Shown here in pieces: positions 12,160 through 29,902 of a stretch of 64,000 nt of DNA. Below the pieces are notes generated by a model, which did no database searches, was not told where the DNA came from, and saw only the letters and a list, made by a program, of their open reading frames with translations. The DNA comes from Chlorobiota bacterium. Lineage in GTDB: Bacteria; Bacteroidota; Ignavibacteria; OLB7. The DNA is taken from assembly GCA_016710285.1 (NCBI GenBank), contig JADJXR010000001.1, positions 3,373,338 to 3,437,337 on the forward strand. The letters are read 5' to 3'. Each line of letters starts with the position of its first letter. Position 1 is the stretch's first letter. Both the position numbers and the translations under genes were made by a program.

Positions 12160-12174
12160 GAATGAAAAACAGAA

Positions 12175-12203
12175 TAAGGCGGATAATACGATTATCCGCC
12201 TTA
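12175..12203. promoter_or_regulatory. perfect 29-nt palindrome TAAGGCGGATAAT-ACG-ATTATCCGCCTTA between the Cys-rich gene and the AT-rich delta-60 gene
   Basis: 13-bp perfect inverted repeat read directly. No T-run on the plus strand; T-rich only on the minus side. Confidence 0.4.
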
Positions 12204-12242
12204 CTCTAAAAAAATATCACAGCAAATTCAAGGAGTAAAGAC

Positions 12243-14759
12243 ATGAGTACGAAACTCTTAATGCTATTATTGATAGCATCAGTAAGCACAGCAATAGCAC
12301 AACATCTTACACCAATTCCATCATCTAATATTATTGCATTTAATGATGCTCCATTAACCGCAATTCCAATAGATGGATCATTGCTAGTAGGAGGACGATT
12401 TTTAAAATGTGCACCATATAACACTGGAATTGCCACTGTTGATCCGGTATCTGGGAAGATGTTAAATGATATCAGGTTTGATAATGGAGGGAGTCTTGTC
12501 GTATCCGATAGCGGAGGTGGGTATTATCTATTAGTAGGGGCTACCCCACCAGTGAAGTACGGTACTTCAATCCTGAAGAGGATACAATCCGATGGAAAGG
12601 TCCTGTATAGCGTCCCCCTGTTTGTTAATGGAATTGATCGTTTTTCTGGAACGATTGAATGTATGGCCGCAAAAGGAGATACTGTCTATTTAGGTGGTAG
12701 GTTCTCAACAATCAATGGCATTCCAAGAAATTCCATTGCAGCAATTGAAGCGAGTTCCGGTACAATACTGGACTTTAACCCAACTGTAGATAGCAATGTA
12801 CAAAGCATGGTGATATATGGAAATGATATTGTTATTGGCGGATTGTTTGATACCGTGTTGGGTCAGCCGAGAACTGCTCTGGCAAGAATTAATCGCTATC
12901 AAGGAGTGTTGCATGATTGGCCAATAATGCCAACGGCATTAATGCGAACAAAGTTTAATGATCTAATTCATGGTTATAATCGTTTAGTCATTAGCAAAGG
13001 TATACTATATACAATCCGAGGGGCTATTGATCTATCTACAGGAATATCAACCTCATGGAAGCCAGTGCCAGAAAATATTCCGTTAGCACCATATCCTATT
13101 CCACAGATTGTAGATGTTGATGTAAGCGCAGGTCGTATAATCGTTGTTGGTGAATTTACTGGAATCAATGGAAGAAAGCGCAATGGTATTGCTGTTTTCG
13201 ATGAAAAAACAGGTGAATTAACAGAGACGGATCCCAATAAAAACTGGTTAGACCATTATTCATTCCTATCGGCAAATTATTCTAGTGTGCAATGTGTTGG
13301 CTCAATTGCCTATATTGGGGGGATGGATAATTTTATTGGAAGAAAATCTATAGATGGACTAGCCGCGTGTGACATCCTAACTGGAGAAATACAAGAATGG
13401 GAAGTCGCATGCCTTCGACAAAAACCAGGTGCGCAGTACCCTAGTAAAGTAATATATGCTGATCAGAAGCGTGTTTTTGTCCTCGGTTCCCTTGGTTCGA
13501 TTGGTCACCAAATCGTTTCGCGTAATGGCTTTGTAGAATTGTCGAATTCAGGTGATAGAATTCTAGAATGGAATCCTAACTTCAGGAAATATGTGCGACA
13601 ACATTATAGCGATACGGTTGTGCAAATTTCATCAATTCTGATAATCGGTAATATTATTTATATAGGGGGTAATTTCGATTCAGTTAATGGTGTCGCAAGA
13701 AAAAATCTGTGCGCATTTGAACGCACAACCCGCAGCTTACTCCCATGGAACCCTGTAGTGCAAGGACAAATAATAAATGCTATGGCCTATGATAACAGTA
13801 CATTGTATATCGCTGGAAAATTCGATTCTATAAATGGAACAGAGCAACGTTTTGTAGGAGCTATTGATGCTGTAACAGGGGCAATAAAGCGGATAAATAT
13901 AAAAGTAGATACTATAGTTAATTTAATATCCATTCATGATGAACGGTTGTATATCGCCGGAGAATTTAAAGTGGTTAATGATAAAGAACGAAATGGTTTC
14001 GCGGTAATAGATATTCAAAATGGTACTCTTCTGCAAGAAGGGCCAATGCTACCAGCATTAGCTTCAGTTACTGCAATGCTAATATCAGATTCTATTGTGT
14101 ATTTATCTGGTACTCGATTGGGGGCTGAAGTGACACCAATAACAAACCCCATTGGTGGAAGAATGGCATTAGCAGGGTATAACCGTATCACAGGTGCAGT
14201 GCGATGGCAGCCAAATTATCCTATCCCAACGAACGTCAAGGCATCATCTCTAGTGCTGCATCATGGTCTATTATATGCTGGCGCGTTGATGCGCAATAGT
14301 GATAATAGCGGTAAATCATATATAACTACTACAGGGATATTCCAATATGATCCAGTAACAGGAGCAGAGATAGGAAGAACACTAAGCTCTAATACTCCAA
14401 TTATATTATCAATAGTTAATGATACGATTTTTGCAGCTGGACATTTTGATGGAGAAAATGGATGGTCAGGAATGGAGTTTTTTGCTAGATATGACCCTCG
14501 TCAAAATCTTGAAACTAATATTGTAGAAAATTATAAGAACCATTCTCTACACATATGGCCAAACCCAGCAAATAGCTTCATTGAGGTAAATAATGCTGGT
14601 ATGAAGTCAGCCACATTGAGAATCATAAATACTCATGGAGATGTTCTTGAGGAATACGACCTTGCAAAAACGAAATTGGTAGATGTTGGACATCTACCAA
14701 TAGGACAATATATAGCTCAAGTTGGTGTGTACAGCACGAAGTTCACAATATGTAGATAA
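12243..14759 (+). CDS. delta-60-repeat (DUF5122-like beta-propeller) secreted protein with a T9SS C-terminal domain; AT-rich
   Basis: Repeated GGxFxxVNGxxRNxIAAxDxxTGxLxxWNP modules. C-terminal ...HIWPNPANSFIEVNN...IAQVGVYSTKFTICR resembles a T9SS sorting domain. GC is about 37% against about 60% in the flanks. Confidence 0.8.
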   Translation: MSTKLLMLLLIASVSTAIAQHLTPIPSSNIIAFNDAPLTAIPIDGSLLVGGRFLKCAPYNTGIATVDPVSGKMLNDIRFDNGGSLVVSDSGGGYYLLVGATPPVKYGTSILKRIQSDGKVLYSVPLFVNGIDRFSGTIECMAAKGDTVYLGGRFSTINGIPRNSIAAIEASSGTILDFNPTVDSNVQSMVIYGNDIVIGGLFDTVLGQPRTALARINRYQGVLHDWPIMPTALMRTKFNDLIHGYNRLVISKGILYTIRGAIDLSTGISTSWKPVPENIPLAPYPIPQIVDVDVSAGRIIVVGEFTGINGRKRNGIAVFDEKTGELTETDPNKNWLDHYSFLSANYSSVQCVGSIAYIGGMDNFIGRKSIDGLAACDILTGEIQEWEVACLRQKPGAQYPSKVIYADQKRVFVLGSLGSIGHQIVSRNGFVELSNSGDRILEWNPNFRKYVRQHYSDTVVQISSILIIGNIIYIGGNFDSVNGVARKNLCAFERTTRSLLPWNPVVQGQIINAMAYDNSTLYIAGKFDSINGTEQRFVGAIDAVTGAIKRINIKVDTIVNLISIHDERLYIAGEFKVVNDKERNGFAVIDIQNGTLLQEGPMLPALASVTAMLISDSIVYLSGTRLGAEVTPITNPIGGRMALAGYNRITGAVRWQPNYPIPTNVKASSLVLHHGLLYAGALMRNSDNSGKSYITTTGIFQYDPVTGAEIGRTLSSNTPIILSIVNDTIFAAGHFDGENGWSGMEFFARYDPRQNLETNIVENYKNHSLHIWPNPANSFIEVNNAGMKSATLRIINTHGDVLEEYDLAKTKLVDVGHLPIGQYIAQVGVYSTKFTICR

Positions 14760-14776
14760 GGGAATAACACAACAAC

Positions 14777-14808
14777 CATCCGGCAGGTAAGCATTTACCT
14801 GCCGGATG
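14777..14808. terminator. perfect 14-bp hairpin CATCCGGCAGGTAA-GCAT-TTACCTGCCGGATG between the two delta-60 paralogs
   Basis: Read directly. No U-tract, so intrinsic-terminator function is uncertain. Confidence 0.35.
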
Positions 14809-14840
14809 CTCTAACCCATTCACGAAAAACCACAACTACA

Positions 14841-17420
14841 ATGAACGCTACAACTTCCATGTCTCGCCCACTTTTGCTCCTTCTGCTCCTCGCGTTCTTT
14901 TCCCCCGCAATGGCGCAGCAATGGGAAGTCCAGCCACTGCTCCCAGCTCCCGATAATGGAGTCTTGGATGTCGCGAAAATTCATGATCGCCTGATTTTTG
15001 CAGGGAAATTCACCGAGCTTGCCCGATGGAACGGAGGAACCGCACTGTTCGATCTCCACACCGCACAACCCAATCCTCGCTTCTTCTTCCCACGAAATGT
15101 CGAAGCTGCCATCCCGTACAACGGTGGTTGGTTGGTCTATATCCAAGATAGCGCGCTCCTCGGTAGAAATTATGGAACACTCCAGTGGCTTGGTGCAGAT
15201 GGGAACGTAAAACAGAAAATACCCCTGAAATTTAAAGACTCAGGACATGGAGCCAGTGGGATCAACACAATGGCTGCCGATGGAGATACTCTTTATGTTG
15301 CTGGTGGATTTTTTTCTATGAATGACCTAGAACGTGAATATGCCGCAGCACTCCGGATATCTACCGGAGAAATCCTGCAGTGGAAACCACGGGTCAATAA
15401 TTCTATACACTCCATAGTGGTGTCGAATACCGCAGTCTTTATGAGCGGGCTTTTCGACACAGTCTCTGGCAGCTATCAGAAGCGGATAGCACGGGTCTCG
15501 AAAGGCCAGGGTGAGTTGCAGCCGTGGCCGAAACCGATACCAGATCGGTTGACAAATCACTTTTCATTTTATATCAACAAAAAAATACTCTTATGGAAAG
15601 ACCAATTATTCACTGTCAATGGAAGCATGAACATAGAGACGGCAGAGGAAGGGATATGGAAACCATCTCCACTATTATTGGAGAAGCCAGGCCATCCGTT
15701 TTTTATTGCTGACATGACGATAGTGGGTGGGGTGATTTATACGGTTGGTTTTTTTTCATCAATGAACGATGAGCCGCGTAACGGCATGGCAGCATTTTCC
15801 GCAGAGAGCGGCAAGGTGTTGCCCTGGAACCCCAACAAGGGGTGGCAGCCAACAGCGGACAGAGTTGTCCCAACATTATATTTTATCCAGGTTGTGGATA
15901 CGATTGCGTATTGCGCAGGCAGTATCAATAATATCGGGGGCATCCCGGTTCGGGGGATTGGGGCAGTTGCAACCACCACGGGCCAATTGCTCCCCTGGAA
16001 TCCAAGCGTCTCCAACTATACAAGGATTAATAGAAATAGCATCATAGACCTTGTATCACCTGGTTTTCTTGGTGCATCGGAGGACGGAGTGTTAATGGCG
16101 ATCAGCGGAATCGGTACAATCGGCCAACCGCTGACGGCACGATCCGGAATTGCTGAGGTTGACCTCCGCACAGGAGCACTCTCGCCGTGGGACCCGGGCT
16201 TCCGCAGCCGGATGGATCCGGATAGTTTCTATCTGACCTATACGCACATCCATGCGTTGGCACTTCAAGGCTCAACCCTCTATGTTGGGGGTGTCTTCGA
16301 TTCCGTTGGTGGCGTTCCCCGCTCGCGGCTCTGCGCCTTCGATGCCACCACCCACGAACTCCTCCCCTGGAACCCATCGGTCGTCAATGGTGAGTATCCC
16401 GACAGCGTGATCCAGGGATATTGTTGCCACCCCCAAGCGATCTACATCATGGGAACCTTCGACAGCATCGGCGGGGTGGCGCAGAGGTATATCGCCGCAG
16501 TGGACCCGCAGAGCGGAGCGCTGCTGCCGTTTCAAGCAAACCCGAACCGCCCGGTAGCGGCAATGGCCTACAGCGATGGCCGGCTGTATGTTGGCGGGCT
16601 TTTCAGCACCATTGGTGGGAAGCCTCGGAACGGTTTTGCGGTGCTGGATGGGGTCAGTGGCGAGGCATTGGAGGAGGGACCGATGTTCCCGCCGCGTGCC
16701 ACGGTGCAATCGCTGGCGGTGGGCGACACGCTGGTCTATGTATCGGGGATTCGGTTAGGGAAGGAGGTGACGCCGATGATCCGTCCGATTATTGGAGATG
16801 GGAATGGTTTTGGGGGATACGACCGGACAAGCGGGGAGCTACGGTGGTTGCCGAAGTATCCAGTGCCAACGAACACCGGAGCCGCCCGTTTGGAGCTATC
16901 GCCGCGTGGGTTGATGGTCTCGGGGTTGTTTAGTCGGAAGCCATATCAATCCTTGCCTGGGCAGTGGGATTCCTCGAACAACGGGATGATGCGATTGGAC
17001 GCAAGAAGCGGGGAGGTAAAGGGTGAGTGGCCATTGATTGGGGGATCGAATTTTATTGAATGGTCAGATACGTTGCTGATCTGGGAAGAGTCTCCAGACG
17101 AGCAGCAGGGGATACGGATACCGTATTTAGCATTGCTAACGAACGAGCAGTCGAGCGGGGTTGTTGTTGGGCGGGTTGCAATGGAGGGTTCGGGGGAGTT
17201 GCGTGCCTACCCGAACCCATCGAGTGGTCGTGTTCGAGTGGAGTGTGAAGGAGGATGTGAAGGGAAGGAGTTGGAAGTGGTGAACCAGTACGGAGAGCGG
17301 GTGATGCAGCAGGGATTTGGCGAAGGCGGCGAGTGTGTGTTGGACCTTGGCGGCCTAAGCAATGGAGTCTATCTGGTTCGCATCGGAACCCGCAGCGCGA
17401 CGATTGTGGTGCAGAGGTAG
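14841..17420 (+). CDS. delta-60-repeat beta-propeller secreted protein with a T9SS C-terminal domain; GC-rich paralog
   Basis: Same repeat architecture as 12243..14759 (…LLPWNPSV…GGxFxSxGG). C-terminal ...LSNGVYLVRIGTRSATIVVQR. Confidence 0.8.
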   Translation: MNATTSMSRPLLLLLLLAFFSPAMAQQWEVQPLLPAPDNGVLDVAKIHDRLIFAGKFTELARWNGGTALFDLHTAQPNPRFFFPRNVEAAIPYNGGWLVYIQDSALLGRNYGTLQWLGADGNVKQKIPLKFKDSGHGASGINTMAADGDTLYVAGGFFSMNDLEREYAAALRISTGEILQWKPRVNNSIHSIVVSNTAVFMSGLFDTVSGSYQKRIARVSKGQGELQPWPKPIPDRLTNHFSFYINKKILLWKDQLFTVNGSMNIETAEEGIWKPSPLLLEKPGHPFFIADMTIVGGVIYTVGFFSSMNDEPRNGMAAFSAESGKVLPWNPNKGWQPTADRVVPTLYFIQVVDTIAYCAGSINNIGGIPVRGIGAVATTTGQLLPWNPSVSNYTRINRNSIIDLVSPGFLGASEDGVLMAISGIGTIGQPLTARSGIAEVDLRTGALSPWDPGFRSRMDPDSFYLTYTHIHALALQGSTLYVGGVFDSVGGVPRSRLCAFDATTHELLPWNPSVVNGEYPDSVIQGYCCHPQAIYIMGTFDSIGGVAQRYIAAVDPQSGALLPFQANPNRPVAAMAYSDGRLYVGGLFSTIGGKPRNGFAVLDGVSGEALEEGPMFPPRATVQSLAVGDTLVYVSGIRLGKEVTPMIRPIIGDGNGFGGYDRTSGELRWLPKYPVPTNTGAARLELSPRGLMVSGLFSRKPYQSLPGQWDSSNNGMMRLDARSGEVKGEWPLIGGSNFIEWSDTLLIWEESPDEQQGIRIPYLALLTNEQSSGVVVGRVAMEGSGELRAYPNPSSGRVRVECEGGCEGKELEVVNQYGERVMQQGFGEGGECVLDLGGLSNGVYLVRIGTRSATIVVQR

Positions 17421-17523: not shown

Positions 17524-19299
17524 CTACGAGGCTCCTTCTTCCTCGGCCAGCTCACCATACCACAATCCTTGCATCTCATCGCTGCTTGCCAGCAGTTCAT
17601 CCAACGTCCCCTGCGATTCTATCTTCCCCTCCTTCAACAGGATGATGTGGTCAGCACGTTGCAGTGCGGCGCGGCGGTGCGAGGCCACAAGGCAGGTTGC
17701 TTCCCGTTGCTGGAAAATCTGCTCCCACAAGGTGCGTTCGGTCTCCACATCCAGCGCGCTGGAAAGGTCGTCGAAGACGTACAGTTCCGGTTGCAGCGCA
17801 AACATCCGCGCTGCGGCTGTCCGCTGCATCTGGCCGCCGGAGAGCTTCACGCCGCGTGGCCCGATGGTGCTTTGCAGGCCATGCTCCAGCAGCCGGATAT
17901 CATGCTCCATCACCGCAAGGTGCAACGCTTCGGCCACTTGGTCGGCGGGCATTGGTTGGCCCAGGGTGATATTGTCCAGCAGGGTATCGCTGAACAGCCG
18001 TGGGGTCTGCGGCGTGTAGGCCGTTCGCGGCGGCGACATGAAGGTGGCGGGGTCCATCACCAACTTCCCGTTCCAGTAGATTTCCCCCGTGTCGCGAGGG
18101 AGCAATCCCAGCAGGACTTTCAGCAAGGTGGTTTTCCCCGCGCCAATCCGCCCCGTGATAACCGTGAACGATCCCCGCCGCACCCGTAGCGAAACATCTG
18201 CAATCCCACGCTCGGTGCCCGGGTGGTGATAGCCCAGCCCAACCCCTTCCAGCGTGTAGAGTTTGTGCCGCGTGCCACGGGTGATCCGCGGGACCTCCGG
18301 CAGCGTATCGTGCAGATACACCGGCGCGTGCTCCATCAGTTTTTGCTGCGGCGCGTTTTGCAGAAGGTCGTTCATCCGCTCCACCGAAACCCCAGCGCGG
18401 CGATACTCGGAGATCATGTTCCCCACAAACCTCATGCTTCCGCTGATGCGCCCCATGTAGATCACGAACAGCGCAAAATCGCCCACGGTGAAGGACCCGG
18501 TTCGCATCGCTTCGCTGGCCAGCAGCAGCACAATGCCAATCCCGATGTTCGCCATATTTTCGTTCACGCTGTTGATTAACTCACGCCCCAACGTATCCTT
18601 CAGCGCCGCGCCGCGCCGCTGCTCGTTCAGCTTGCTGAAATGGCTCATCATCCGCTCCTCCGCCGCCGAAACCTTCACGGTCCCGACGGCATTGAACGTC
18701 TCGCCAATAAACGAAGTCACCCGCCCGGTTGCTTCGCGGTGTGCGCGGCGGTACTTCCTCATGCGGCCCCCCATGCGGTAGCTGAAGTAGCTGATAACCG
18801 CCAGCGGAGCCAACGCCACCAGCGTCATTTCCGGGGCGATGTTCGCCATGATGATAACGCTGATGACCAGCGAGACAAGAAACCCGCTGGCATCCGTCCC
18901 CGATTCCACCAGGTGCATCACGTCCTCAACGTCGTCGCGGAAACGGTTGACGGCCTCGCTGGGTGAGTCCTTCAGCCGGCGTGACCCCGGCCCCTGGACC
19001 AGCCACTCCAGCATATTCCGGCGCATCAACGCCTCGATGGTATAAAGGAAGGTTGACCAAGCGTGGATTCCAACCCGCATCACCCCAAGCCGCGCTCCGG
19101 TTGTCACCACCAGCAAGGCAAGCAGCGTCCACAATCCAAACTCGGCGGAAGCCTTCCCGCTTAGCGTGTCGAAAATCGCTTTGGTGATAAGCCCCAAGAA
19201 GATTGGGGCACTGTGAAATAGCCCCCAGCAAAGGCAGTTCAGCGCGAACAGCCAGGGCCGGTAGCGGATAAACCCAATGATGTATGTTCCGGTTGTCAT
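17524..19299 (-). CDS. ABC transporter ATP-binding/permease protein (type I exporter, heterodimer partner)
   Basis: Six-TM N-terminus, Walker [12 protein letters not shown], signature LSGGQMQR, Walker [13 protein letters not shown]. Its start ATG overlaps the upstream gene stop (ATGA). Confidence 0.9.
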
Positions 19300-21038
19300 G
19301 CTAACTCCTGTTCTAATCCGGTTTGAAGCAGTTGGTAGTATCGTGATGTCGTGTCCATCTCCAGCAGCTCGCGCTTGCCATGCTCGCGCACGTGTCCATC
19401 TTCAAGAATCATGATCTCATCGGCGCGGGCCACGGTCGAGAGGCGGTGGGCGATGATGATTGCCGTGCGGTTCTGCGTCAGCCGCGCCATTGCCCCTTCC
19501 AGAAGCTGCTCGGTTGCGCGGTCCATCTTTGATGATGGCTCGTCAAGAATCACCAATCCGGGGTCGCGAAGGAACAGCCGCGCAAAGCTGAGCAACTGCG
19601 CTTCCCCCGCCGAAAACCCGCCGCCACCGGTTGCCAGCACCGTATCCAGCCCATCGCTGAAACGGCCAAACCAGTTACGCAGCCCAAGCAGGTCCGCCAC
19701 CTCCCAGATTCTGCTGTCGGGGATGGAGTCGTCGAACCACGTAAGGTTTTGGCGAAGCGTGGCATGGAACAACTGCACATCCTGCGTCACCATTCCGATG
19801 CCGCTGCGAAGGTCGCGCTGGCGAACGTCGCGAAGGTCGTTCCCGTCAATCAGCACCGCGCCCGAGGTTGGGTCGTACAGCCGGAAGAGCAATCGGGTCA
19901 GCGTGGATTTCCCGCTTCCGGTTCGCCCCAGCAGCCCCACCACCGTCCCCGGCTTCAGCGTGAAGTTGATCCCTTTCAGGACCGGGCGTTGGCCGTAGGC
20001 AAAGGTGAGGTTATGGAAGCGGACCTCCATCGCTCCGTTGTGGGGAAGTGGCAAATGGCCATCCTTCATGCTGGCGCGTTCCCTCATCATCTCCTCCACG
20101 CGGCCCACCGCTGCGCCGGCCTTCTGCAGGTCCTGCATCTGGTGGGTGATCTGCTCGATTGGCGTGCGGAGCAGATCGGTGTATTGGAAGATCAGATAGA
20201 CCGTGCCGATCATAATGGTTCCCCCCTGGAACAGCCAGATTCCAAGCCCCAGCGCAAGCACGTCGCCAATGGCGAACAGGCCCATCACCGCCACCCACAT
20301 CACCGAGCGTTTCAGCCAGGCGTTTTTTCCGGTTCGGGCAACGCCCCCCATCACTTGGTGGAAGCGGCGCATGGTGTAGGATCCGCCACCGTTTGCGCGG
20401 ATGTCGTCAATGCCGGCAAGGCGTTCTTCAAGGAATCCGTACAGATCCGCGCTGGCTTGGCGTTCCTGGGCCGAGGCCGCCACCGCGTAATCGCGAAGGC
20501 TGTTCAGCACCAGCGCGGCGCAAATGGTGAAGGCGGTCAGAGCCGCGCCAACAATCGGGTCCTCGCGGAAGAGCATCACCAGCGCGCCCACCAGCAGCAG
20601 CGCGCTTCCCAGAACCTTTACCACGAATTGGGAGAAGAAGTTGGAAAGGGCGGTGATGTCGCCATCAATCCGCTCGATCATTTCGCCCGGGGTGCGTTCG
20701 TTGTGGTATCCCATGTCAAGCCGCAGGGCGTGCTCGGCCATGTCTTGGCGCAGCATGTTGGTGGCGCGCCAGCCCACATCGGCCCCCACGTAGGTGGCCA
20801 GCATGGAAAGCCCTTGCGTGCCAATCGCGGCGGCAAGGAATAGGAGGGCGGTGATAACCAGTTCGGTCCCATCCCCTCCGGTTTGAACGGTATTGATAAA
20901 GTGCCGCAGGATTTGCGGATTCAGCAGCTGAAGTCCGATTCCGGCAAGTAGCAGCAGGAACAGCGCGGCGGCTTTTTTCCATTGCGGCCGCAAGTACTTC
21001 AGGAAAATGTCAGCATATCGCCGTAGTGAAATCTTCAT
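19296..21038 (-). CDS. ABC transporter ATP-binding/permease protein (type I exporter, heterodimer partner)
   Basis: Walker [11 protein letters not shown], signature FSAGEAQLL, Walker [10 protein letters not shown]. The likely start is MKISLRRY at 21038; the ORF track begins further upstream. Confidence 0.9.
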
Positions 21039-21858
21039 GGAACGTCTCTCTTTCTCCAGATGTTGGTGTGATGAAAAACAGCGGAGTCGCGTGCGAAGCA
21101 ATGGCACAGCCCGTGCCGTAGTGTCACGCGATGGTCAACCTGGGCAACGTGTGATGCCGGTTGCGATGGTACTCTGGTTCCGTCAGTCGGTTAAAAAAAG
21201 AGCGGCGTATGTTGGGCGGCGAATGCTCAAGCAGAAGCAGGTATGCCAGAAGGCAACGTCCGCAGCGAAGGGCTGGTGTTCTGCGGCAGGTGTAGCGTGG
21301 GAAGAAGCGGGGTGGTGCTGCGGATTGCAGCGAATACAACGCTTCTGTGGCCTGCGTAGAACAGCCCCCAGCGCGTTGTAGCCAAATGGGAAAACGGGTC
21401 TTCCGATGAACTTACGCCCTGAGCGCCATAACCGAATTGCGTGGTCGCGATGCGAATGCGGTGGTAATGATGGTAAATAACATGGCAACAGCCTCCTTAT
21501 GGTTTGAACGTATGACTCGCCCCGGCTCATGGCGCACCTTGCACCCGCCCCGGCAGCGTGATGTTGCCCCAAACACAAAAATCAGGCCAAAGTTTCCGGG
21601 GGAGGTTTTTACTGATTGTTCGGCAAGCTATAAGCCTGTGCAGCTGGTTGTACATTTGCGGCCTCTTTGTACATTGGGGTGGTTCTTCATCGAACCATTG
21701 TCAGAGTCGGCATCTCAGGGTGCCCGCAAGAACATCACACATCACGCTGACCAAGCCCGACACCTATCGAACGTAGCGCACAGGCAATCACGCAAAAGAC
21801 TGGGATATGTTCGTGGGGAGTCTGAATGTATAGGGTACGGTAGATAAATTCAAATCAA

Positions 21859-23733
21859 ATGATGAACAACACAACACTAACCACTGGGAAGAAATACATC
21901 AAGGATATTTTTAGTGCTGAACAGTTTTTTAATATTCCAGAATATCAACGACCTTATGTCTGGGGGGATGAACAAATTAGTGCATTCCTTGAAGATGTAA
22001 GCAAGGCAATGGAAACTGACAGCAATAAAGAGTATTTCCTTGGCTGCATGATTTGGAACACTCGACAAGAAAGAGCGAGTAGAAATATTGAGTATGTATA
22101 TCAAGATATTTTAGACGGGCAGCAACGATTCATTACTTTATTTTTATTACATGGAGTTATTAGGGACATTTCGATCGAAGTTAAGCTTCAAGAGAATGTT
22201 CAAAAACGGCTTATTCAAGAGGCAGATGATTATAATAATATTCCTGCACGAAATAGAATTGAATTTGAAATACGAGACGATAAAGACTTTTTAGATAATT
22301 ATGTTATTAATTTAGGAGGCACTCTCAAGGTTAACGAAATTGAAGACGTTATCAATAGTCCAAAATCTGGTGCTTCAATAAAAAATATGGCATCAGGGAT
22401 TTTAATAATGAAAAAATGGTGGATTTATAAATTTAGTGAAAATCAAGGAAGTGAGGAAAAATATTTGGCCGATTTCTATAAATATCTTTCAACTAAAGTA
22501 CTTGCACTTTACTTAGCTACACCAAACAATCTAGATGATGCTTATAATTTATTTACTGTGTTAAACAGCAGAGGGCTCCAACTGCAGGTAAGTGATATTT
22601 TAAGAGCACAAAATCTGAGAGTAATCGAGAATGATGAATTGAGAAAGCTATACGCTTCAAAATGGTCTGATTTCGAAAATTCAATTGCGGCTCCTTACAA
22701 AGGATTCGATGATTTTCTTTGGTCACTGGTGTTTATTAAGATGAAATATCGTAGCGATGACAACAAAAGTTTGACTAAAGCATTTGAGTTTATGTTCAAA
22801 CGCAACATGCTCACAAAGGGGACGGACACTCTTGACTATGTCGGTAAGTATTTGAAGCACTATGAAGCCATCACTAACGGTAGTATAACGAACAGAGAAA
22901 GTCTAAACCTTTTTAGTAATCTAAATTTTATTCTTTCAAGTGTTTATGGTAGTCAATATATCACTCCTCTCATGCATTATCGTGAATGCTTTGGTGATAC
23001 AAGAATTGTCGAATTCTTAATCAAAATTGACAATCTGTTTTCGATTGGCTGGTTGTTGGGTCGCAGGCAGTCGTCAACAAGAACTTTTATTATCCTTCGT
23101 AAAATTGAATCATATTCTGATTTGGTGAAAAAGAAAGAATTAACGATAGACGAAGCGGTCGAAGATTTGCTCAATGATCCATGCTTACAATATGATTTTT
23201 ATGATGATGAAATTTCCTCAGATAAACCAATTGATATTGATGATTTTGCTATTCTACTTAACACCGAAAAATGGGGGAGCTTTTCCGGTACAAGAATCAA
23301 CAAGACAAGATACTTACTGTTAAAAATGGATTTGATTATGGGTAATCCATCAACTATTCTGCAATACAACAAAGATTCATCTTCTATTGAGCATTTGATG
23401 CCACAGAAAATTGAGGGGACACAATGGACTGTTCATCCAGCAAAACATAAAGAGTGGGTTCATAGATTGGGCAACCTTGTACTTATTGATAAAAACAAAA
23501 ATTCATCATTAAGTAATAAGCTGTTCAATGAGAAAAAAACAAAATATCATGGAGCAATTGAAACAAGAGCCAATACGAATTTCATTTTTATTGCTAATCT
23601 GAATTGGGACATTGATGCAATTAAAGCAAACCAAGAACGAACAATAGACCTGTTGATGCAATACTATAAAGGCAATAGTCTGAAATCCTTTCTGCAAATC
23701 AAAAAAAATATAAACTCTACTGTGTTATTATAA
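21859..23733 (+). CDS. GmrSD-family type IV (modification-dependent) restriction endonuclease, DUF262 plus DUF1524
   Basis: N-terminal DUF262/ParB-like motifs (FNIPEYQRPYVWGDEQ, ILDGQQRFITLFLL). C-terminal DUF1524/His-Me finger-like (IEHLMPQK...W...HRLGNLVLIDKNKN). GC is about 33%. Confidence 0.85.
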   Translation: MMNNTTLTTGKKYIKDIFSAEQFFNIPEYQRPYVWGDEQISAFLEDVSKAMETDSNKEYFLGCMIWNTRQERASRNIEYVYQDILDGQQRFITLFLLHGVIRDISIEVKLQENVQKRLIQEADDYNNIPARNRIEFEIRDDKDFLDNYVINLGGTLKVNEIEDVINSPKSGASIKNMASGILIMKKWWIYKFSENQGSEEKYLADFYKYLSTKVLALYLATPNNLDDAYNLFTVLNSRGLQLQVSDILRAQNLRVIENDELRKLYASKWSDFENSIAAPYKGFDDFLWSLVFIKMKYRSDDNKSLTKAFEFMFKRNMLTKGTDTLDYVGKYLKHYEAITNGSITNRESLNLFSNLNFILSSVYGSQYITPLMHYRECFGDTRIVEFLIKIDNLFSIGWLLGRRQSSTRTFIILRKIESYSDLVKKKELTIDEAVEDLLNDPCLQYDFYDDEISSDKPIDIDDFAILLNTEKWGSFSGTRINKTRYLLLKMDLIMGNPSTILQYNKDSSSIEHLMPQKIEGTQWTVHPAKHKEWVHRLGNLVLIDKNKNSSLSNKLFNEKKTKYHGAIETRANTNFIFIANLNWDIDAIKANQERTIDLLMQYYKGNSLKSFLQIKKNINSTVLL

Positions 23734-23809
23734 TTACTACCTCACCTTACGCAAGACCAAGCGGTATCTGGGAAATTGGGCATCCATGGCGTTCCATCAA
23801 GAATGCTCG

Positions 23810-24346
23810 TTACTCATGCTGAACCCTGTTGCAGTAAGGGCGAAACCGCTCCCTCATCCGAAACCGCTTCCCGATTTCCTCGCCAACGCTCATTAAGCAA
23901 CGGGTTTCTTCTTCGGTGAACTCATGCTCGGCTGGTTTGGCTATTCCAAGCGTGCCAAGCAGTTCTCCGTCCAGCATGATCGGAACGGTGATGGAGCCTT
24001 CCACCCCGGTCTCCCGCGCCGATGGTTTTGCAACGCCCGAGGCATCGGTCTGCAGGTTGCAGACCTGCACCGGAGCGCGCCGCTCGGCAGCAAGCCCGGC
24101 CATCCCTTTTCCGATGGGGATGGCTGACACTTTCTGCAGCAACATCGGGGGAATCCCAATCTCCGCCTCCAATCGCAAAAGGTTCGCCAGCTGGTCAAGG
24201 CGATGGATGGAGCCAACCACGCCCCCATATTCCTGAAGCACAAGCTCCAGCACGTTGCGGAGTTGGCGATCGGCGGGAAGGTCCGCTGTGAAGGCTGCGT
24301 GAACCGATTCCAGAAGCTCGGCGCAGCGTAGTTGTTTGGTGTCCAT
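23810..24346 (-). CDS. GAF domain-containing protein
   Basis: GAF-like core (VGSIHRLD...ITVPIMLDGELLGTLGIAKP). ATG at 24346 is assumed; the ORF track uses a GTG at 24439, 3 nt after the upstream gene stop. Confidence 0.65.
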   Translation of the reverse strand: MDTKQLRCAELLESVHAAFTADLPADRQLRNVLELVLQEYGGVVGSIHRLDQLANLLRLEAEIGIPPMLLQKVSAIPIGKGMAGLAAERRAPVQVCNLQTDASGVAKPSARETGVEGSITVPIMLDGELLGTLGIAKPAEHEFTEEETRCLMSVGEEIGKRFRMRERFRPYCNRVQHE

Positions 24347-24442
24347 GTCGGTAACGGTTGATTGGTTGATCGTTGCTGATTTCTGGCAAACTCTGCCAGT
24401 GAGGTTGAGCAATGGCTCAGCGTCTCCGCTCCCGGCCACGCA

Positions 24443-26089
24443 TCATGGCTGAATCACCACAAACCGGGATCCATCAAAGATGATGGAGCGATGCCGCTTC
24501 CGGCTTGGAAGCGGAGCGGTGATCGCGCTTGGCTGGCCACTTTCCGAAACGCGGTTAATGGTAACGGTCCCGCTTCCTGCATCGGTCTCCACCTGCGCGG
24601 CCATTCGTCCGTTGTCCGCCTGGAGGGCGTTTCCCCCCAGCAAAAAATATCCGCCATCATCGGCAGAAAGATGGATGTTTCCCCGGGCAGAGTCGTAGCG
24701 GTAACTGATGCGCGACGGGTAGCGGTCGGCCACAAATCTTCCCCATGTTCCCACCACAAGGCTATCGTTCCCCAATGCCCGTTGCAGTGTTTTCTGGAAC
24801 CCAAGATGAAACACCGGAACCGTTTGGATACGGGCAAGCAAGGATGCAACGTAGATCGTGTCGGCCCCGCTGCTGCCGCGAAGGTCACGGCGAAGCTGGA
24901 CCACCAGCGAATCGGCAATGCGGCTTGCAAAAATCCACTGGGCGGTGGCAAGCAGAAGCACCACGGCGTACAGCAGGGCAACGCCCCCGGCCAGCGCGGC
25001 GCGCAATCGCCAGCGGTGCGGGGCAAGCTGGCCAATCGCCCACGCAAGCCCAATGCTGAACCCCACCGAGGGGATGTAGAGATACCACCGCATCATCAAC
25101 CGCGAAACGGGAAGGAGGGAAAGAAGCACCCACGCAGCCGGAAGCAGCAACGGAAGAAGCCGCCCCCGATTCCGCCACGCGGCCCACGCAGCGGCAGCGG
25201 CCACAATGGCCCCGCCCCCGGCGACCGCTGTTGGATGCGCGGCCAGCAATCCTTGCAACTGATAAAGCCCCGTTGGAATAACCAGCGCAGCAAGGAACAT
25301 CCCCAAGTTGCGGGCAAGGTGCAGGATGTTGGTATCGGTGTGGGGGCCGTTTCCGCCGAACAGCATATTGTTCTCCAGCAGCAGCCAGCGCGCCGCCACA
25401 ACGCCAGCGGCAAGAAGGAAGAATGGAGCGACGATCCGAAAAGTCCGATTCGGCTGCCACCGAACCCCTTGCTTACGGTCAACCCACCACGCCACCGGGA
25501 CAAGAATGAGCGGAAGGGAAAAGGCCATCTCCTTGGAAAGAAGTGCCAGCAACATCAGCAGCAACGCCAAGCATTGATCCCTCCATTTGTTGCTTCTGGC
25601 ATATGTGGTCAGGCTGCAGACCGAGCCAAGATAGAAGACAGCGCAAAGCAAATCGGTGCGGCCCGGAATCCAAAGGATGGAGGTTTCGTGGACCGGAAGC
25701 AGCCCAAAAAAAAGCGCGGCAGCAAACGGAACAAAGGGGGCGCCGAACCACCGCTCCGCCAACCGAAACACCAACCCCGTGGCCAGAAGATGAAGCAGCA
25801 GATTCGTCAGCCGGAAGCCGACGGGGTTCCAGCCCCACAGCCAAAAATCCACCGCGCTGGAAAGCTCGCTTAGCGGGCGGTAGTAATCCTCGGTGATCCC
25901 CGCGCTTGTCAGCAGCCGCAGCGGGTCGGGGGCGTTGTCGCGGAAGAAGAGGCTGATATAGGCCGCGTCGTCGTTGATAAACCCAATCCAGAGCATCGGC
26001 AGAAGCAGCAACGCCGTGGCCCCAATCACGACCGCAAGCTGCACGGAGCGATGTTGCAGGAAAGGGGGAGCGATCGAGCGGATGGCCAT
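24443..26089 (-). CDS. GT-C superfamily membrane glycosyltransferase (ArnT/PMT-like)
   Basis: Polytopic membrane protein with the periplasmic-loop DD motif (FINDDAAY) typical of GT-C enzymes, and a C-terminal soluble domain. Confidence 0.65.
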   Translation of the reverse strand: MAIRSIAPPFLQHRSVQLAVVIGATALLLLPMLWIGFINDDAAYISLFFRDNAPDPLRLLTSAGITEDYYRPLSELSSAVDFWLWGWNPVGFRLTNLLLHLLATGLVFRLAERWFGAPFVPFAAALFFGLLPVHETSILWIPGRTDLLCAVFYLGSVCSLTTYARSNKWRDQCLALLLMLLALLSKEMAFSLPLILVPVAWWVDRKQGVRWQPNRTFRIVAPFFLLAAGVVAARWLLLENNMLFGGNGPHTDTNILHLARNLGMFLAALVIPTGLYQLQGLLAAHPTAVAGGGAIVAAAAAWAAWRNRGRLLPLLLPAAWVLLSLLPVSRLMMRWYLYIPSVGFSIGLAWAIGQLAPHRWRLRAALAGGVALLYAVVLLLATAQWIFASRIADSLVVQLRRDLRGSSGADTIYVASLLARIQTVPVFHLGFQKTLQRALGNDSLVVGTWGRFVADRYPSRISYRYDSARGNIHLSADDGGYFLLGGNALQADNGRMAAQVETDAGSGTVTINRVSESGQPSAITAPLPSRKRHRSIIFDGSRFVVIQP

Positions 26090-26214
26090 GCGGAAAATCA
26101 GCGGGAAAATGTGCGTTGGCTTAAAAATCCAGTAGCAAGCAATCGGTTCCGGGGCGTAAATTCATCCCCGTTGTAGGATTGAAAGAACTGATCGAGAGGA
26201 CGTAGCTTCTACCC

Positions 26215-28440
26215 ATGAGCAAAGTAAGAACCGGAGGCGGTTTTGCCTCCATTGGATACACAATTCAAAAAGCGTTTGCGGCCGACGGCGGGCCGATAGA
26301 GTTTTGGCGGCGAATGAAATCGCGTAACGCCTGCAAGACCTGTGCCTACGGAATGGGAGGGCAGCGTGGCGGGATGACCAACGAGGCGGGCCAGTTCCCG
26401 GAGTTCTGCAAAAAAAGCGTCCAGGCAATGGCCGCCGATATGCAGCCCCCAATCGCCCCCGATTTCTTCAACCAATACTCCGTTTCCGAACTTGCCAAGC
26501 TAAGCCCGCGCCAGCTGGAGAATCTGGGCCGCCTTTCCTATCCGATCATCCATCGTGCGGGTGAGGACCGCTACTGCCGGTTGGAGTGGGAGGAAGCGTT
26601 TGGGCTGATTGCCGGGGCGATGAAAGGGACCGATCCTTCCCGCTCCTTTTTTTATTCATCGGGAAGAAGCAGCAACGAGGCCGCGTTCCTGCTGCAATGG
26701 TTGGCGCGGGTGTATGGGACCAACAACGTCAACAACTGCTCGTTCTACTGCCACCAAGCCAGCGGCGTTGGGTTGGCGCGGAGTATCGGGTCGGGGACGG
26801 CAACCGTCACGTTGGAGGATGTTGAGCATTCCGATTTTGTGCTGCTGATTGGCGCAAACCCGGCAAGCAACCACCCCCGGCTTATCACAACGCTGGTGGG
26901 AATTCGGGCACGCGGAGGGAAAGTGGTGGTGGTGAACCCGCTGCGGGAGACCGGGTTGGAGCGTTTCAACGTTCCATCGCGGGTTGGTTCGCTGCTGTTT
27001 GGCTCGCAGGTGAACGACCTCTACATCCAGCCACGAATCGGCGGCGACATCCCTTTTCTGAAAGGAGTCCTCAAGGCTGTTATTGCATTTTCGGAAACCA
27101 ACACTGAGTTCATCGAACGCTACACCAGCGGCTGGGAAGAACTGGCCGCGTCGCTGCGGGAAGAATCGCTGGAAGATTTGGCTGCCAATGCCGGGGTGAG
27201 TGTGGGGTTGATCCAGAGCGTCGCGAAAATGTACGCCAGCGCCAACAACGCCGTTTTTATGTGGGCCATGGGGATCACCCACCACGAGCATGGGGCCGAC
27301 AACGTGCTGGCCATTGCCAACCTTGCGCTTGCACGCGGCATGGTGGGCCGCCGGAACGCAGGCTTGATGCCAATCCGTGGCCACTCGAACGTGCAAGGAA
27401 TCGGCTCAGTCGGGTTCGCCCCCGACCTGAAAGAAGGATTCTTGAAAGCGATGGAGGAATTGTACGGGCTTCCCTTGCCACGCGGAAAAGGGATGGACTC
27501 CATCCGCTCGCTTCACGCCGCCGGGCGCGATGAAATTGATGTGGCGATTCTTCTTGGCGGCAACTTCTACGCCGCAAGCCCCGACCTTGCCTACGCCGGG
27601 CGTGCGCTGGGCCGCATTCGCCACTGCGTCACCATCAGCACAAAGCTGAATCAAGGCCATGTTTGCGTTGCGCCGCAGCGGGAAGGGGGGTGGGCAATCG
27701 TGCTGCCAACCGTTGTGCGCGATGAAGAGATGCAGGCCACCACGCAGGAGAGCATGTTCAGTTTTGTTCGCCTGTCCGATGGCGGGATGCGCAGGCCGTT
27801 GGGGGACCTCCGTTCGGAAGTGGAGATTATCACCACCATTGGCGGCCATTTGCTTCCCGATGGGCCGATTGATTTCCGCGCGCTGCGGAACCACGATGCC
27901 GTGCGGCGGGTGATGGCCCAAGTGGTTCCGGGATACGACAAGGTTGCGGAGATTGGCCGCACCAAACATGAGTTCCATGTGAAAGATCGCGTGCGCCACC
28001 ATCCAGAGTTTCCGTTTCCCGACGGGCGTGCGCGGTTCGTTGCGGTCCCCACACCCCCCGACGACCGCAGCCCCGGCCAGCTCCGCTTGATGACCATCCG
28101 TTCGGAGGGGCAATTCAACACGGTGGTGTATGAAGAACATGATCGTTACCGCAATCAACCGGCGCGGGATGTTATCTTGCTCCATCCCCACGATATGGGG
28201 CGGTTGGGGATAGCCGAAGGGGAGCGCATCACCGTGGTTTCGGCCACCGGAGCAATGCCAAACATCATGGCCGTGGCGTTCTCCATCGCCGAAGGATGCG
28301 CGGCCATGTACTATCCCGAGGCAAACGTCCTGGTCCCAACTTCTGTAGATTCCGCCAGCGGTACTCCGGCATTCAAAAACGTGCTGGTGACGCTGGTGCC
28401 AAGCCAAAGCGGAACCGAGCACAAACCGCAAACCTGGTAA
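26215..28440 (+). CDS. FdhF/YdeP-family molybdopterin oxidoreductase alpha subunit
   Basis: Cys cluster CKTCAYGMGG. FYSSGRSSNEAAFLLQ...CSFYCHQASGVGL and the MGITHHEHG region match YdeP-type formate-dehydrogenase-like enzymes. Confidence 0.9.
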   Translation: MSKVRTGGGFASIGYTIQKAFAADGGPIEFWRRMKSRNACKTCAYGMGGQRGGMTNEAGQFPEFCKKSVQAMAADMQPPIAPDFFNQYSVSELAKLSPRQLENLGRLSYPIIHRAGEDRYCRLEWEEAFGLIAGAMKGTDPSRSFFYSSGRSSNEAAFLLQWLARVYGTNNVNNCSFYCHQASGVGLARSIGSGTATVTLEDVEHSDFVLLIGANPASNHPRLITTLVGIRARGGKVVVVNPLRETGLERFNVPSRVGSLLFGSQVNDLYIQPRIGGDIPFLKGVLKAVIAFSETNTEFIERYTSGWEELAASLREESLEDLAANAGVSVGLIQSVAKMYASANNAVFMWAMGITHHEHGADNVLAIANLALARGMVGRRNAGLMPIRGHSNVQGIGSVGFAPDLKEGFLKAMEELYGLPLPRGKGMDSIRSLHAAGRDEIDVAILLGGNFYAASPDLAYAGRALGRIRHCVTISTKLNQGHVCVAPQREGGWAIVLPTVVRDEEMQATTQESMFSFVRLSDGGMRRPLGDLRSEVEIITTIGGHLLPDGPIDFRALRNHDAVRRVMAQVVPGYDKVAEIGRTKHEFHVKDRVRHHPEFPFPDGRARFVAVPTPPDDRSPGQLRLMTIRSEGQFNTVVYEEHDRYRNQPARDVILLHPHDMGRLGIAEGERITVVSATGAMPNIMAVAFSIAEGCAAMYYPEANVLVPTSVDSASGTPAFKNVLVTLVPSQSGTEHKPQTW

Positions 28441-28475
28441 GCGGCCAAAACGCTGCGCAACAATTCCGGCCAACT

Positions 28476-29852
28476 ATGAAACCCTTGATTTACGTTGTTG
28501 ACGACGACCACAGCGTTCGCCGCCTGATGGAGCATTGGTTGAAGACCAAATGGGAATACACCATCCAGCTGTTCACCAGCGGGGAGCAATGCCTTGACGC
28601 GTTGGACGCAGGCCCCGACCTTGTTATCCTGGATGTGATGCTTCCCGGAATGAGCGGGGTGGAGACATTGCGGGAAATTCGCAAACGCGACGCTGATCTT
28701 CCGGTGGTCATGCTTTCGGCACAGGGGCAAATTGATGTTGTGGTGGAGACCATCAAGCTGGGAGCAATGGATTATTTCCCCAAAACCATTGACCTGAATA
28801 AACTAGAGCTGGCGGTTCGCAACGCTTTGGAGATGCACTCGCTAAAACGTGAGCTTCATCAACTTCGCGACAGCGTTGCCGAGACCGGTAGTTTTGAGAA
28901 TATCATTGCCTCGGCAGGGCCAATGGAAAATGTGCTGAAGCTGGTGCATAAAGCAAAAAACAGTGATATATCAGTGCTAATCCAGGGGGAAAGTGGAACG
29001 GGAAAAGAGTTGATTGCGCGGGCAATCCATTTTAATGGAAAGCGGAAAAACGGCCCTTTTATTGCTGTCAATTGTGCCGCAATTCCGCGAGACCTGATTG
29101 AGAGCGAAATGTTCGGCCATGAAAAAGGGGCATTTACGGGAGCGGTGGCGCGGAAGATTGGGAAATTCGAGCAAGCCAATGGTGGCACTATTTTTCTTGA
29201 TGAGATTGGGGAGTTGGATATGAACCTGCAAGCCAAATTGCTGCGGGCAATCCAGCAAAAACAGTTCGAGCGTGTTGGCGGGATCGAGGTGCTAACCAGC
29301 GATACGCGCATCGTCTCGGCAACCAACCGCGATTTGGTTAAGGCCAGCCAAAACAAAGAATTCCGGGAAGACTTATACTACCGCCTGGCCTCGTTCCCCA
29401 TTATGCTCCCTCCGCTTCGCGAACGCAGGGCCGACGTGATGCTATTGGCCGAGCATTTTCTGAAAACATACAGCAAGCGTGAAGGGAAAGCAATCCGAAC
29501 AATCTCCCGGAAAGCAATTAAAATGCTGTATGATTACCCCTGGCCCGGCAACGTCCGCGAACTTGAAAGCGCGATAGAGCGGGCGATACTGCTCTGCGAA
29601 GATGATATGATTACCGAAGGAGATTTGCCCCTTGCCGTGCGTGCATTTAGCGAAGGAGCAAGCGTTGCCGTTCCGATGGACTCAGTCTTCGAAAATCAAA
29701 GCATGATTATCCCTCTGGAAACATTAAAGGAGCAGGCGGTGAAGCATGCCTTAAAAGTCACCGAAGGGAATATCCTTGAAGCCGCAAAAAAACTTCGCAT
29801 AAGCCGCTCGACGATGTATGAGATGATAAAAAAATATGACGTGCGGGTGTAA
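28476..29852 (+). CDS. sigma-54-dependent response regulator (NtrC family: receiver + AAA+ + Fis-type HTH)
   Basis: Receiver domain (VVDDDHSV...DVMLPGMSG). AAA+ domain with GESGTGKE and GAFTGA. C-terminal HTH. No adjacent histidine kinase. Confidence 0.9.
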   Translation: MKPLIYVVDDDHSVRRLMEHWLKTKWEYTIQLFTSGEQCLDALDAGPDLVILDVMLPGMSGVETLREIRKRDADLPVVMLSAQGQIDVVVETIKLGAMDYFPKTIDLNKLELAVRNALEMHSLKRELHQLRDSVAETGSFENIIASAGPMENVLKLVHKAKNSDISVLIQGESGTGKELIARAIHFNGKRKNGPFIAVNCAAIPRDLIESEMFGHEKGAFTGAVARKIGKFEQANGGTIFLDEIGELDMNLQAKLLRAIQQKQFERVGGIEVLTSDTRIVSATNRDLVKASQNKEFREDLYYRLASFPIMLPPLRERRADVMLLAEHFLKTYSKREGKAIRTISRKAIKMLYDYPWPGNVRELESAIERAILLCEDDMITEGDLPLAVRAFSEGASVAVPMDSVFENQSMIIPLETLKEQAVKHALKVTEGNILEAAKKLRISRSTMYEMIKKYDVRV

Positions 29853-29902
29853 AAGCGATCATTCTTTCAGCAAGTAGAACCGTACCACAATCGCAATCCC
29901 CA

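Follow-up and report, generated by a model that had tools for sequence, protein, structure and literature searches.

The nuclease HEC-06 protects Escherichia coli on its own, and this protection requires the Q and R residues of its DGQQR motif as well as the E and H residues of its nuclease domain (Payne et al., bioRxiv 10.1101/2024.01.29.577857). A Bacteroides homologue, HEC-06Bact, restricts T-even phages but not the cytosine-unmodified mutant T4-GT7 (PMC12366544). DndI follows the opposite logic, as it is restrained by phosphorothioate (PT) on self DNA and is harmful to cells without PT (PMC11662687). Here we describe a gene related to both, found in a 64,000-nt stretch of a Chlorobiota bacterium genome (contig JADJXR010000001.1 of assembly GCA_016710285.1; hereafter the window). 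The gene is an AT-rich open reading frame (ORF) at 21859..23733 on the plus strand, stop codon included, which starts with ATG and encodes 624 residues. The original prediction, made from the letters of the window, described it as a recently acquired restriction enzyme of GmrSD/BrxU-type architecture. Our analysis places the protein on the HEC-06/DndI side of the GmrSD superfamily, and comparison with related species indicates that the gene arrived within a segment of 2245 nt that replaced a short spacer next to an exporter operon.

The Pfam assignment of the protein is unambiguous, both expected domains scoring far over their gathering cut-offs. GmrSD_N (PF03235) matches residues 14-251 with 106.5 bits (E-value of 2.6e-30, cut-off 33.2), and GmrSD_C (PF07510) matches residues 475-594 with 68.8 bits (E-value of 5.7e-19, cut-off 23). 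A helical linker connects the N-terminal DUF262 to the C-terminal DUF1524. The gene and its domains are the following.

21859..23733, plus strand: nuclease gene of the GmrSD superfamily, HEC-06/DndI-like (ORF, Pfam, PADLOC and Foldseek)
21898..22611, plus strand: DUF262 or GmrSD_N domain (ParB-like NTPase), residues 14-251 (Pfam and homologue alignment)
23281..23640, plus strand: DUF1524 or GmrSD_C His-Me finger nuclease domain, residues 475-594 (Pfam and homologue alignment)

The protein has all four motifs quoted in the prediction, and 25 homologues, the most distant of 58% identity, keep them without change. These are EYQRPYVW (residues 28-35), DGQQR (D86-R90, nt 22114-22128), IEHLMP, which holds E511-H512 (nt 23389-23394), and HRLGNLVLID, which holds H535 and N539. 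The LNSRG block and, further on, N548 and N553 are equally invariant.

In PADLOC, the HEC-06 family ranks first with 168 bits (6e-50), followed by Orf5/DndI with 139 bits (5e-41), SspE with 80 bits (3e-23) and mREase_IV with 43 bits (7e-12). The paper reporting the 9JFL structure makes it most likely that the PADLOC name Orf5 denotes DndI. The HEC-06 models (PDLC04155, 6e-50; PDLC04157, 7e-46; PDLC04154, 1e-39) have their best stretches mainly in the N-terminal half, and some Orf5 models align end to end with the nuclease. No NCBIfam model matches the protein. A sequence search of the PDB returned DndI (9JFL) as the best match with an E-value of 2.5e-18 and SspE as a weak one, BrxU being absent at E<0.01. 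An AlphaFold2 model built on the 25 homologues has a mean predicted local distance difference test score (pLDDT) of 77. When it was compared with the PDB in Foldseek at E<=0.001, it matched DndI (7.7e-14), SspE (2e-10) and BrxU (2.8e-5), and nothing else. These matches have low TM-scores (0.28-0.47), which is usual when flexible proteins of several domains are compared. In BLASTP, the nuclease is 23% identical (2e-10) over its N-terminal ~240 residues to E. coli HEC-06, of which the first 399 residues were used, and 23% identical (3e-4) to HEC-05/BrxU. The RLFDS motif of BrxU is not conserved, the aligned segment being AFLED. Hence, the protein is a bona fide nuclease of the GmrSD superfamily that belongs to its HEC-06/DndI side rather than to its GmrSD/BrxU side. 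The predicted superfamily stands on the Pfam domains, the motifs, the fold and the defence-family models, whereas the GmrSD/BrxU label has to be replaced with that of the nearest characterised relatives, HEC-06 and DndI.

Insertion beside the exporter operon

The gene stands out sharply from its surroundings. Its GC content is 0.335 and its GC content at third codon positions (GC3) is 0.31, whereas the flanking ATP-binding cassette (ABC) exporter, GAF, p548 and molybdopterin genes have values of 0.59-0.61 and 0.67-0.77, respectively. The mean GC content of the window outside the gene is 0.558. In 400-nt sliding windows the GC content falls from 0.53-0.64 to 0.31-0.37 across the ORF and is back at 0.59 by 23800. 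At a resolution of 40 nt, the AT-rich core spans 21836-23740, that is, the ORF with ~20-23 nt upstream and 7 nt downstream. The claim of a low-GC gene in high-GC surroundings, between a minus-strand ABC exporter operon and a minus-strand GAF gene, is thus confirmed in both composition and position.

When the neighbouring ABC protein was used to scan a genome collection, orthologues of 89% identity turned up in two species, which we call L005 and L006. In L005, the gene order is p548, GAF, a spacer of 269 nt, leader and ABC, so that the junction between the ABC and GAF genes is free of the nuclease gene. A blastn comparison of the window with L005 shows homology at 29854..23849 and 21601..17541 and leaves 2247 unaligned window nucleotides (21602-23848) opposite the spacer. 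In L006, homology breaks off at the same left position, 21603, and gives way to housekeeping genes; in a third species, L065, with a p548 of 69% identity, it breaks off at the same right position, 23849. From these breakpoints (21601/23849 in L005, 21603 in L006 and 23849 in L065) we set the boundaries of the insert at 21604 and 23848. The features of the region are as follows.

21604..23848, no strand: segment of 2245 nt absent from the sister species, with an unrelated 269-nt spacer instead in L005
21836..23740, no strand: AT-rich core with a GC of 0.334, little more than the ORF (40-nt GC profile)
21604..21835, no strand: left 232 nt of the insert, GC 0.51, the same in all strains compared
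23741..23848, no strand: right 108 nt of the insert, GC 0.52; nt 23810-23848 encode 12 new C-terminal GAF residues and a stop
23810..24439, minus strand: GAF-domain gene with its 3' end rewritten by the insertion (NCBI calls the start at 24412)
17524..21038, minus strand: operon of two genes for a heterodimeric ABC exporter (TM287/288 / BmrCD type), conserved as the left neighbour
21039..21603, minus strand: conserved leader or regulatory region of the ABC operon, 565 nt, ~85% identical in L005 and L006

The polarity of the change can be read from the GAF gene. Its ending in both L005 and L065 is RMRELG(G) followed by the stop codon. The window protein diverges right after RMRE and reads RFRPYCNRVQHE up to its stop, so that its new end is RMRERFRPYCNRVQHE; the insertion cost the GAF gene its final two codons along with its stop. 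Because L005 and L065 share an intact GAF end that is broken in the window, the window state is the derived one, an insertion or replacement. Taken together, these alignments indicate that the 2245-nt segment replaced the short spacer between the GAF gene and the ABC leader and overwrote the GAF 3' end. A deeper relative, reached through a 43% identical p548 orthologue (P0126), has no synteny with the window and is uninformative. An exact-match look-up with the GAF sequence is biased towards alleles that carry the island, as the GAF C-terminus comes from the insert, and is blind to strains with an empty site.

We also compared the window with two other metagenome-assembled genomes (MAGs) or assemblies of the same species. 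Within segment 21604-23809, there are 0 mismatches in 2206 nt. The ABC genes, in contrast, carry 37-46 mismatches each (97.4-97.8% identity, or a distance of ~2.5%), and the remaining mismatches number 2/565 in the leader, 3/630 in the GAF gene and 4/1517 in p548, with a total of 7/2147 nt for the right flank. Even at the low rate of the right flank, ~7 mismatches would be expected in the insert and the Poisson probability of finding none is ~7e-4. Hence, the insert is either younger than the divergence of these strains or has spread by homologous recombination through its flanks. With the junction free of the gene in L005, the ancestral GAF end in two outgroups, an unameliorated composition and zero divergence between strains, the recent acquisition that had been proposed is well supported.

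The insert is a mosaic in which the AT-rich ORF lies between the 232 nt of GC 0.51 and the 108 nt of GC 0.52. Its nearest protein relatives, the best of them 83% identical, belong to Panacibacter, Arcicella, Flavipsychrobacter and Chryseobacterium, all of them low-GC Bacteroidota. DNA similarity to the nearest Bacteroidota loci is 74-77% and is confined to the ORF (21852/21862-23705), and the gene has a GC content of 33-34% in every host. The ORF ultimately derives from a low-GC lineage of the Bacteroidota type. In local alignments with L006, L065 and the L005 spacer, the intermediate-GC flanks were no more similar than shuffled sequences, and a scan of metagenome DNA with the left flank gave no match and no immediate donor. 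The left 232-nt piece presumably carries the promoter of the nuclease gene. Two copies of TTGTACATT, each with the palindrome TGTACA and 20 nt apart, are found in it at 21640-21680. They may serve as a promoter element or operator, either of the nuclease gene or of the divergent ABC operon.

The vehicle of the transfer left few marks. There is no tRNA gene in the window and no integrase or transposase among the neighbours of the gene in it, and a search of the island ends for attachment (att) repeats, target-site duplications or terminal inverted repeats found only repeats of chance size. The idea of the prediction that the gene is possibly a remnant of a larger defence island finds no support, since the neighbours show no defence matches, pseudogene remnants, integrase or repeats. 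Viral contigs, when scanned for the nuclease, yielded no relative of it and thus no indication of a phage as vector. A likely route would be illegitimate or flank-mediated recombination that involved no integrase, att repeat or insertion sequence. An imperfect 13-nt direct repeat, CGAAACCGCTCCC / CGAAACCGCTTCC, straddles the right breakpoint (23848/23849) at 23841-23871, with its copies 18 nt apart, and reads KRFR...ERFR in the GAF frame. It could be a microhomology used in the insertion or a product of chance.

Two further observations concern the same site in other populations. In L065, directly past the GAF stop (L065:2365-5575), there are ~3 kb of DNA with a GC content of 25-37% that encode an unknown protein of 206 residues, a YARHG protein and an SMI1_KNR4 (SUKH immunity-like) protein. 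The differing AT-rich cargo of L065 and the window suggests that the GAF 3' junction is a recurrent insertion hotspot. In a sister population, 18 contigs carry the p548 orthologue P0122, and all four of those examined (L061-L064) end 57 nt past p548, before the GAF gene. These ends look like a systematic assembly break, which is consistent with strain-level heterogeneity at the locus.

In summary, the locus represents a clean and well-bounded case in which one defence gene has crossed lineages and entered a genome of very different composition. Its breakpoints are defined to the nucleotide, its polarity follows from two outgroup species, and it has not diverged between strains that differ elsewhere in the region.

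Proposed function and competing explanations

The most probable explanation, in which we have fair confidence, is that the gene came by horizontal transfer and encodes a defence nuclease of the HEC-06/DndI branch that stands alone, with type IV action assigned by analogy. By the example of the tested family members, the protein would act alone as a modification-dependent restriction enzyme, in which NTP binding and hydrolysis by the DUF262 domain would control the nuclease. The His-Me nuclease would cut phage DNA with non-host base modifications, such as hypermodified cytosines, and would leave host DNA alone. We propose this mechanism because HEC-06 and HEC-06Bact behave in this manner.

A role in defence is further supported by the contexts of the homologues, some of which sit within defence islands. 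An 80% identical homologue lies between a Thoeris system (ThsB/ThsA) and a type I restriction-modification (R-M) system with AbiEii, a 74% identical one adjoins an integrase and a HEPN protein, and others adjoin IS110 copies or Mrr. No neighbour is conserved across the six contexts, that is, the window and five homologue loci, as would be expected of a gene that works without a partner. Within the family, the proportion of nonsynonymous differences (pN) is 0.10-0.13, whereas that of synonymous differences (pS) is 0.78-0.85 and saturated, which indicates strong purifying selection on these sequences.

Several observations weigh against this explanation. The window protein is no more than 23% identical to the E. 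coli HEC-06 that has been tested, and this over the N-terminal domain, and its modification dependence is carried over by analogy from other members of the family. The closest solved structure, that of DndI, belongs to an enzyme of the opposite logic, in which host phosphorothioation protects self DNA. The 232-nt and 108-nt flanks of intermediate GC content match none of the sister loci, and the best DNA match is only 77% identical with synonymous sites saturated, which means that the true donor is unsampled. The remaining points concern expression and selection. No Shine-Dalgarno sequence precedes the ATG of the nuclease gene, though nearby host genes have one; a scan for sigma-70-like promoters upstream of the gene found no site; and the AT-rich DNA upstream of the ATG amounts to only ~23 nt. 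For these reasons, expression of the nuclease in the host is only predicted. Furthermore, the gene has zero variation within the species and thus offers no evidence of selection in this host.

The missing Shine-Dalgarno sequence and promoter site and the short stretch of donor-like DNA upstream would also suit a very recent neutral or silent passenger, a gene that is intact through recency and is expressed little or not at all in its GC-rich host. Its extremely foreign codon usage (GC3 of 0.31 against ~0.7) would fit such a passenger, and zero polymorphism makes selection in this host impossible to demonstrate. We nevertheless regard a passenger as unlikely. The insert is identical in strains with ABC genes ~2.5% apart and a differing right flank, and a sweep or spread by recombination fits this pattern better than drift does. 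The ORF has kept its full length and every catalytic residue, and the 232-nt upstream piece could carry a promoter of a type outside the sigma-70 scan.

Slightly less probable, and in our view quite doubtful, is an effector of the DndI/SspE type, whose DUF262 domain would sense host PT as a mark of self and whose nuclease would nick DNA without the mark. Such an enzyme would need a modification module, dnd or ssp, encoded at another place in the genome. DndI is indeed the closest solved relative by both sequence and fold, SspE ranks over BrxU, and the PADLOC Orf5 models align over the full length of the nuclease. In addition, Y25, the PT-sensing tyrosine of DndI that belongs to its YQR motif (PMC11662687), aligns with the invariant Y29 of the window nuclease. 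However, the YQR tyrosine is a general feature of DUF262 domains and does not discriminate, and the HEC-06 models outscore Orf5 in PADLOC. Neither the neighbours of the gene in the window nor the five homologue loci include dnd or ssp genes. Finally, DndI harms cells without PT, so that a single gene of this kind would pass from one phylum to another only with difficulty, whereas the orthologous group in question does move on its own.

The last alternative, that the gene is ancestral here and was deleted in the sister species, or that the locus is an assembly or binning chimera, draws on the short spacer being seen in only one sister species (L005) of a sparsely sampled lineage, but it is very improbable and largely refuted by the GAF C-terminus that two outgroup species share and the window lacks (an insertion by polarity), by the unameliorated composition with nearest relatives in Bacteroidota, and by independent recoveries of the protein and both junctions, which number at least six across assemblies and samples (among them GCA_001567195.1, GCA_021404615.1, one 4.35-Mb contig and several Logan and ENA runs) and mean that the locus is not an assembly chimera.

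An acquired defence nuclease hence remains the preferred explanation. The locus shows that GmrSD nucleases of the HEC-06/DndI-like kind are passed on as solitary genes between Bacteroidota-related bacteria of environmental and engineered microbiomes. The locus adds nothing conceptually new on GmrSD enzymes and is an ordinary case of an acquired defence gene.

The exporter leader and other neighbours

The original prediction had assigned to the island about 750 nt of non-coding DNA upstream of the nuclease gene. Most of it has a different owner: ~565 nt are the conserved ABC leader with a short upstream ORF (uORF). The start of the first ABC gene is more likely the ATG at 21038, in agreement with the NCBI product of 580 residues, than the GTG at 21107, and with this start the gap to the nuclease gene is ~820 nt. 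L005 and L006 both have segment 21039-21603 at ~85% conservation, which makes it part of the ABC operon and not of the island. The edge of the conservation at 21603 is sharp, and conservation sets in abruptly with the invariant block CCCCGGAAACTTTGGCCTRATTTTTGTGTTTGGGG. The leader indels in L005 and L006 are not multiples of three and break any long frame. Accordingly, a minus-strand ORF of 131 residues (21183..21578) was rejected as a gene, as L005 is frame-shifted in it relative to the window and L006 (21% against 64% identity). A short frame has been preserved.

21412..21483, minus strand (start at 21483): uORF of 23 codons, MLFTIITTAFASRPRNSVMALRA, preceded by AGGAGG and conserved in L005 and L006

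The conserved uORF has 23/24 codons; in L005 and L006 it shows an in-frame indel of 3 nt and synonymous changes, and its stop is kept. The exporter is of the TM287/288 / BmrCD type, and BmrCD is controlled by leader-peptide-dependent transcription attenuation (PMC4191407). By analogy, it is plausible that the leader and its uORF form a leader-peptide attenuator like that of BmrB-BmrCD. An Rfam search of the 20.5-24.5 kb region at a permissive threshold returned only a match at chance level, Dicty Class I RNA (E-value of 0.66). In a consensus fold of the leader from only three sequences, only 3/145 pairs had changed on both sides in one or more of the sequences and yet were kept, with an unfavourable covariation term. 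A scan of metagenome DNA with the invariant 5' block of the leader gave no match and no further junction variants.

On the other side of the ABC operon, homology to L005 and L006 also stops, at ~17541, so that variable DNA lies to either side of the operon. A second AT-rich stretch of the window (~12.0-15.6 kb, nt 12000-15600) has a GC content of 0.39-0.42, and the nuclease gene is therefore not the sole compositional anomaly of the window. This stretch contains an ORF at 12243..14759 (838 residues, GC3 of 0.27) and the 5' part of another at 14841..17420, both of which encode beta-propeller proteins with C-terminal sorting domains of the type IX secretion system (T9SS). That the window encodes Por_Secre_tail proteins agrees with a Bacteroidota-related lineage. 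In one of the assemblies that share the junctions (GCA_001567195.1, L001 7437-10000), the ABC genes are called as fragments of 329 and 466 residues owing to gaps of one base against the window sequence, which probably reflect indels of the assembly and not pseudogenisation. To the right of the GAF gene, the minus-strand gene at 24443-26089 encodes p548, a protein of 548 residues. It has no Pfam match of its own, but its 42-43% identical homologues carry PMT_2 (glycosyltransferase family 39-like). Its orthologues of >69% identity are confined to a handful of contigs, and the 24443-26089 region has a strong AT skew of 0.35-0.50.

The practical value of the locus lies in a candidate type IV enzyme, with the apparent insertion hotspot and the conserved uORF-bearing ABC leader as side leads. 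A bolder view would join three elements: a lineage-specific, integrase-free hotspot that repeatedly takes up foreign AT-rich cargo, a Bacteroidota-centred clade intermediate between HEC-06 and DndI with a novel trigger, and a ribosome-dependent attenuator. We think it rather unlikely that all three hold together. If they did, the nuclease clade could respond to a trigger other than the known cytosine hypermodifications or phosphorothioate, and the leader may be a ribosome-dependent attenuator of a BmrCD-like multidrug exporter outside Firmicutes, a kind undescribed so far.

Comparison with known systems

BrxU, or Eco94GmrSD (PDB 7P9K/7P9M), shares with the window nuclease its Pfam domain pair and the proposed type IV, modification-dependent logic. 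It is, however, the weakest of the significant fold matches (2.8e-5), has no PDB sequence match at E<0.01 and corresponds to a PADLOC mREase_IV score of 43 bits; its RLFDS motif is absent from the window protein, and no BREX genes lie nearby. SspE (PDB 6JIV/7DRS) likewise combines DUF262 with DUF1524 and is a significant fold match (2e-10). It differs in its size of ~770 residues and its linkage to sspABCD, and its sequence matches to the window nuclease are weak and partial.

DndI (Orf5; PDB 9JFL; PMC11662687) is the closest solved structure by sequence (2.5e-18) and fold (7.7e-14). Its alignment with the window nuclease extends over the full length of ~600 residues and the two proteins have the same three-part layout, although their identity is ~18%. 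A further difference is genomic, as dndI is co-transcribed with dndFGH beside dndBCDE, whereas the window gene and its close homologues have no dnd genes.

HEC-06 differs from the window nuclease in sequence, with 23% identity between the E. coli protein and ours over the N-terminal 240 residues, and in setting, as the window gene is solitary in a GC-rich 'Chlorobi' MAG and not embedded in an Hma or R-M system. The activity of the window protein is a predicted one. HEC-06 is the top PADLOC family for the window nuclease, and the two are alike as single proteins of the DUF262-linker-DUF1524 type in which the essential DGQQR and (E)H motifs are present. As in HEC-06, the BrxU motif RLFDS is missing from the window nuclease, which has AFLED instead. 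One homologue of the window gene is located directly upstream of a type I R-M system, a position that recalls the embedded contexts of HEC-06.

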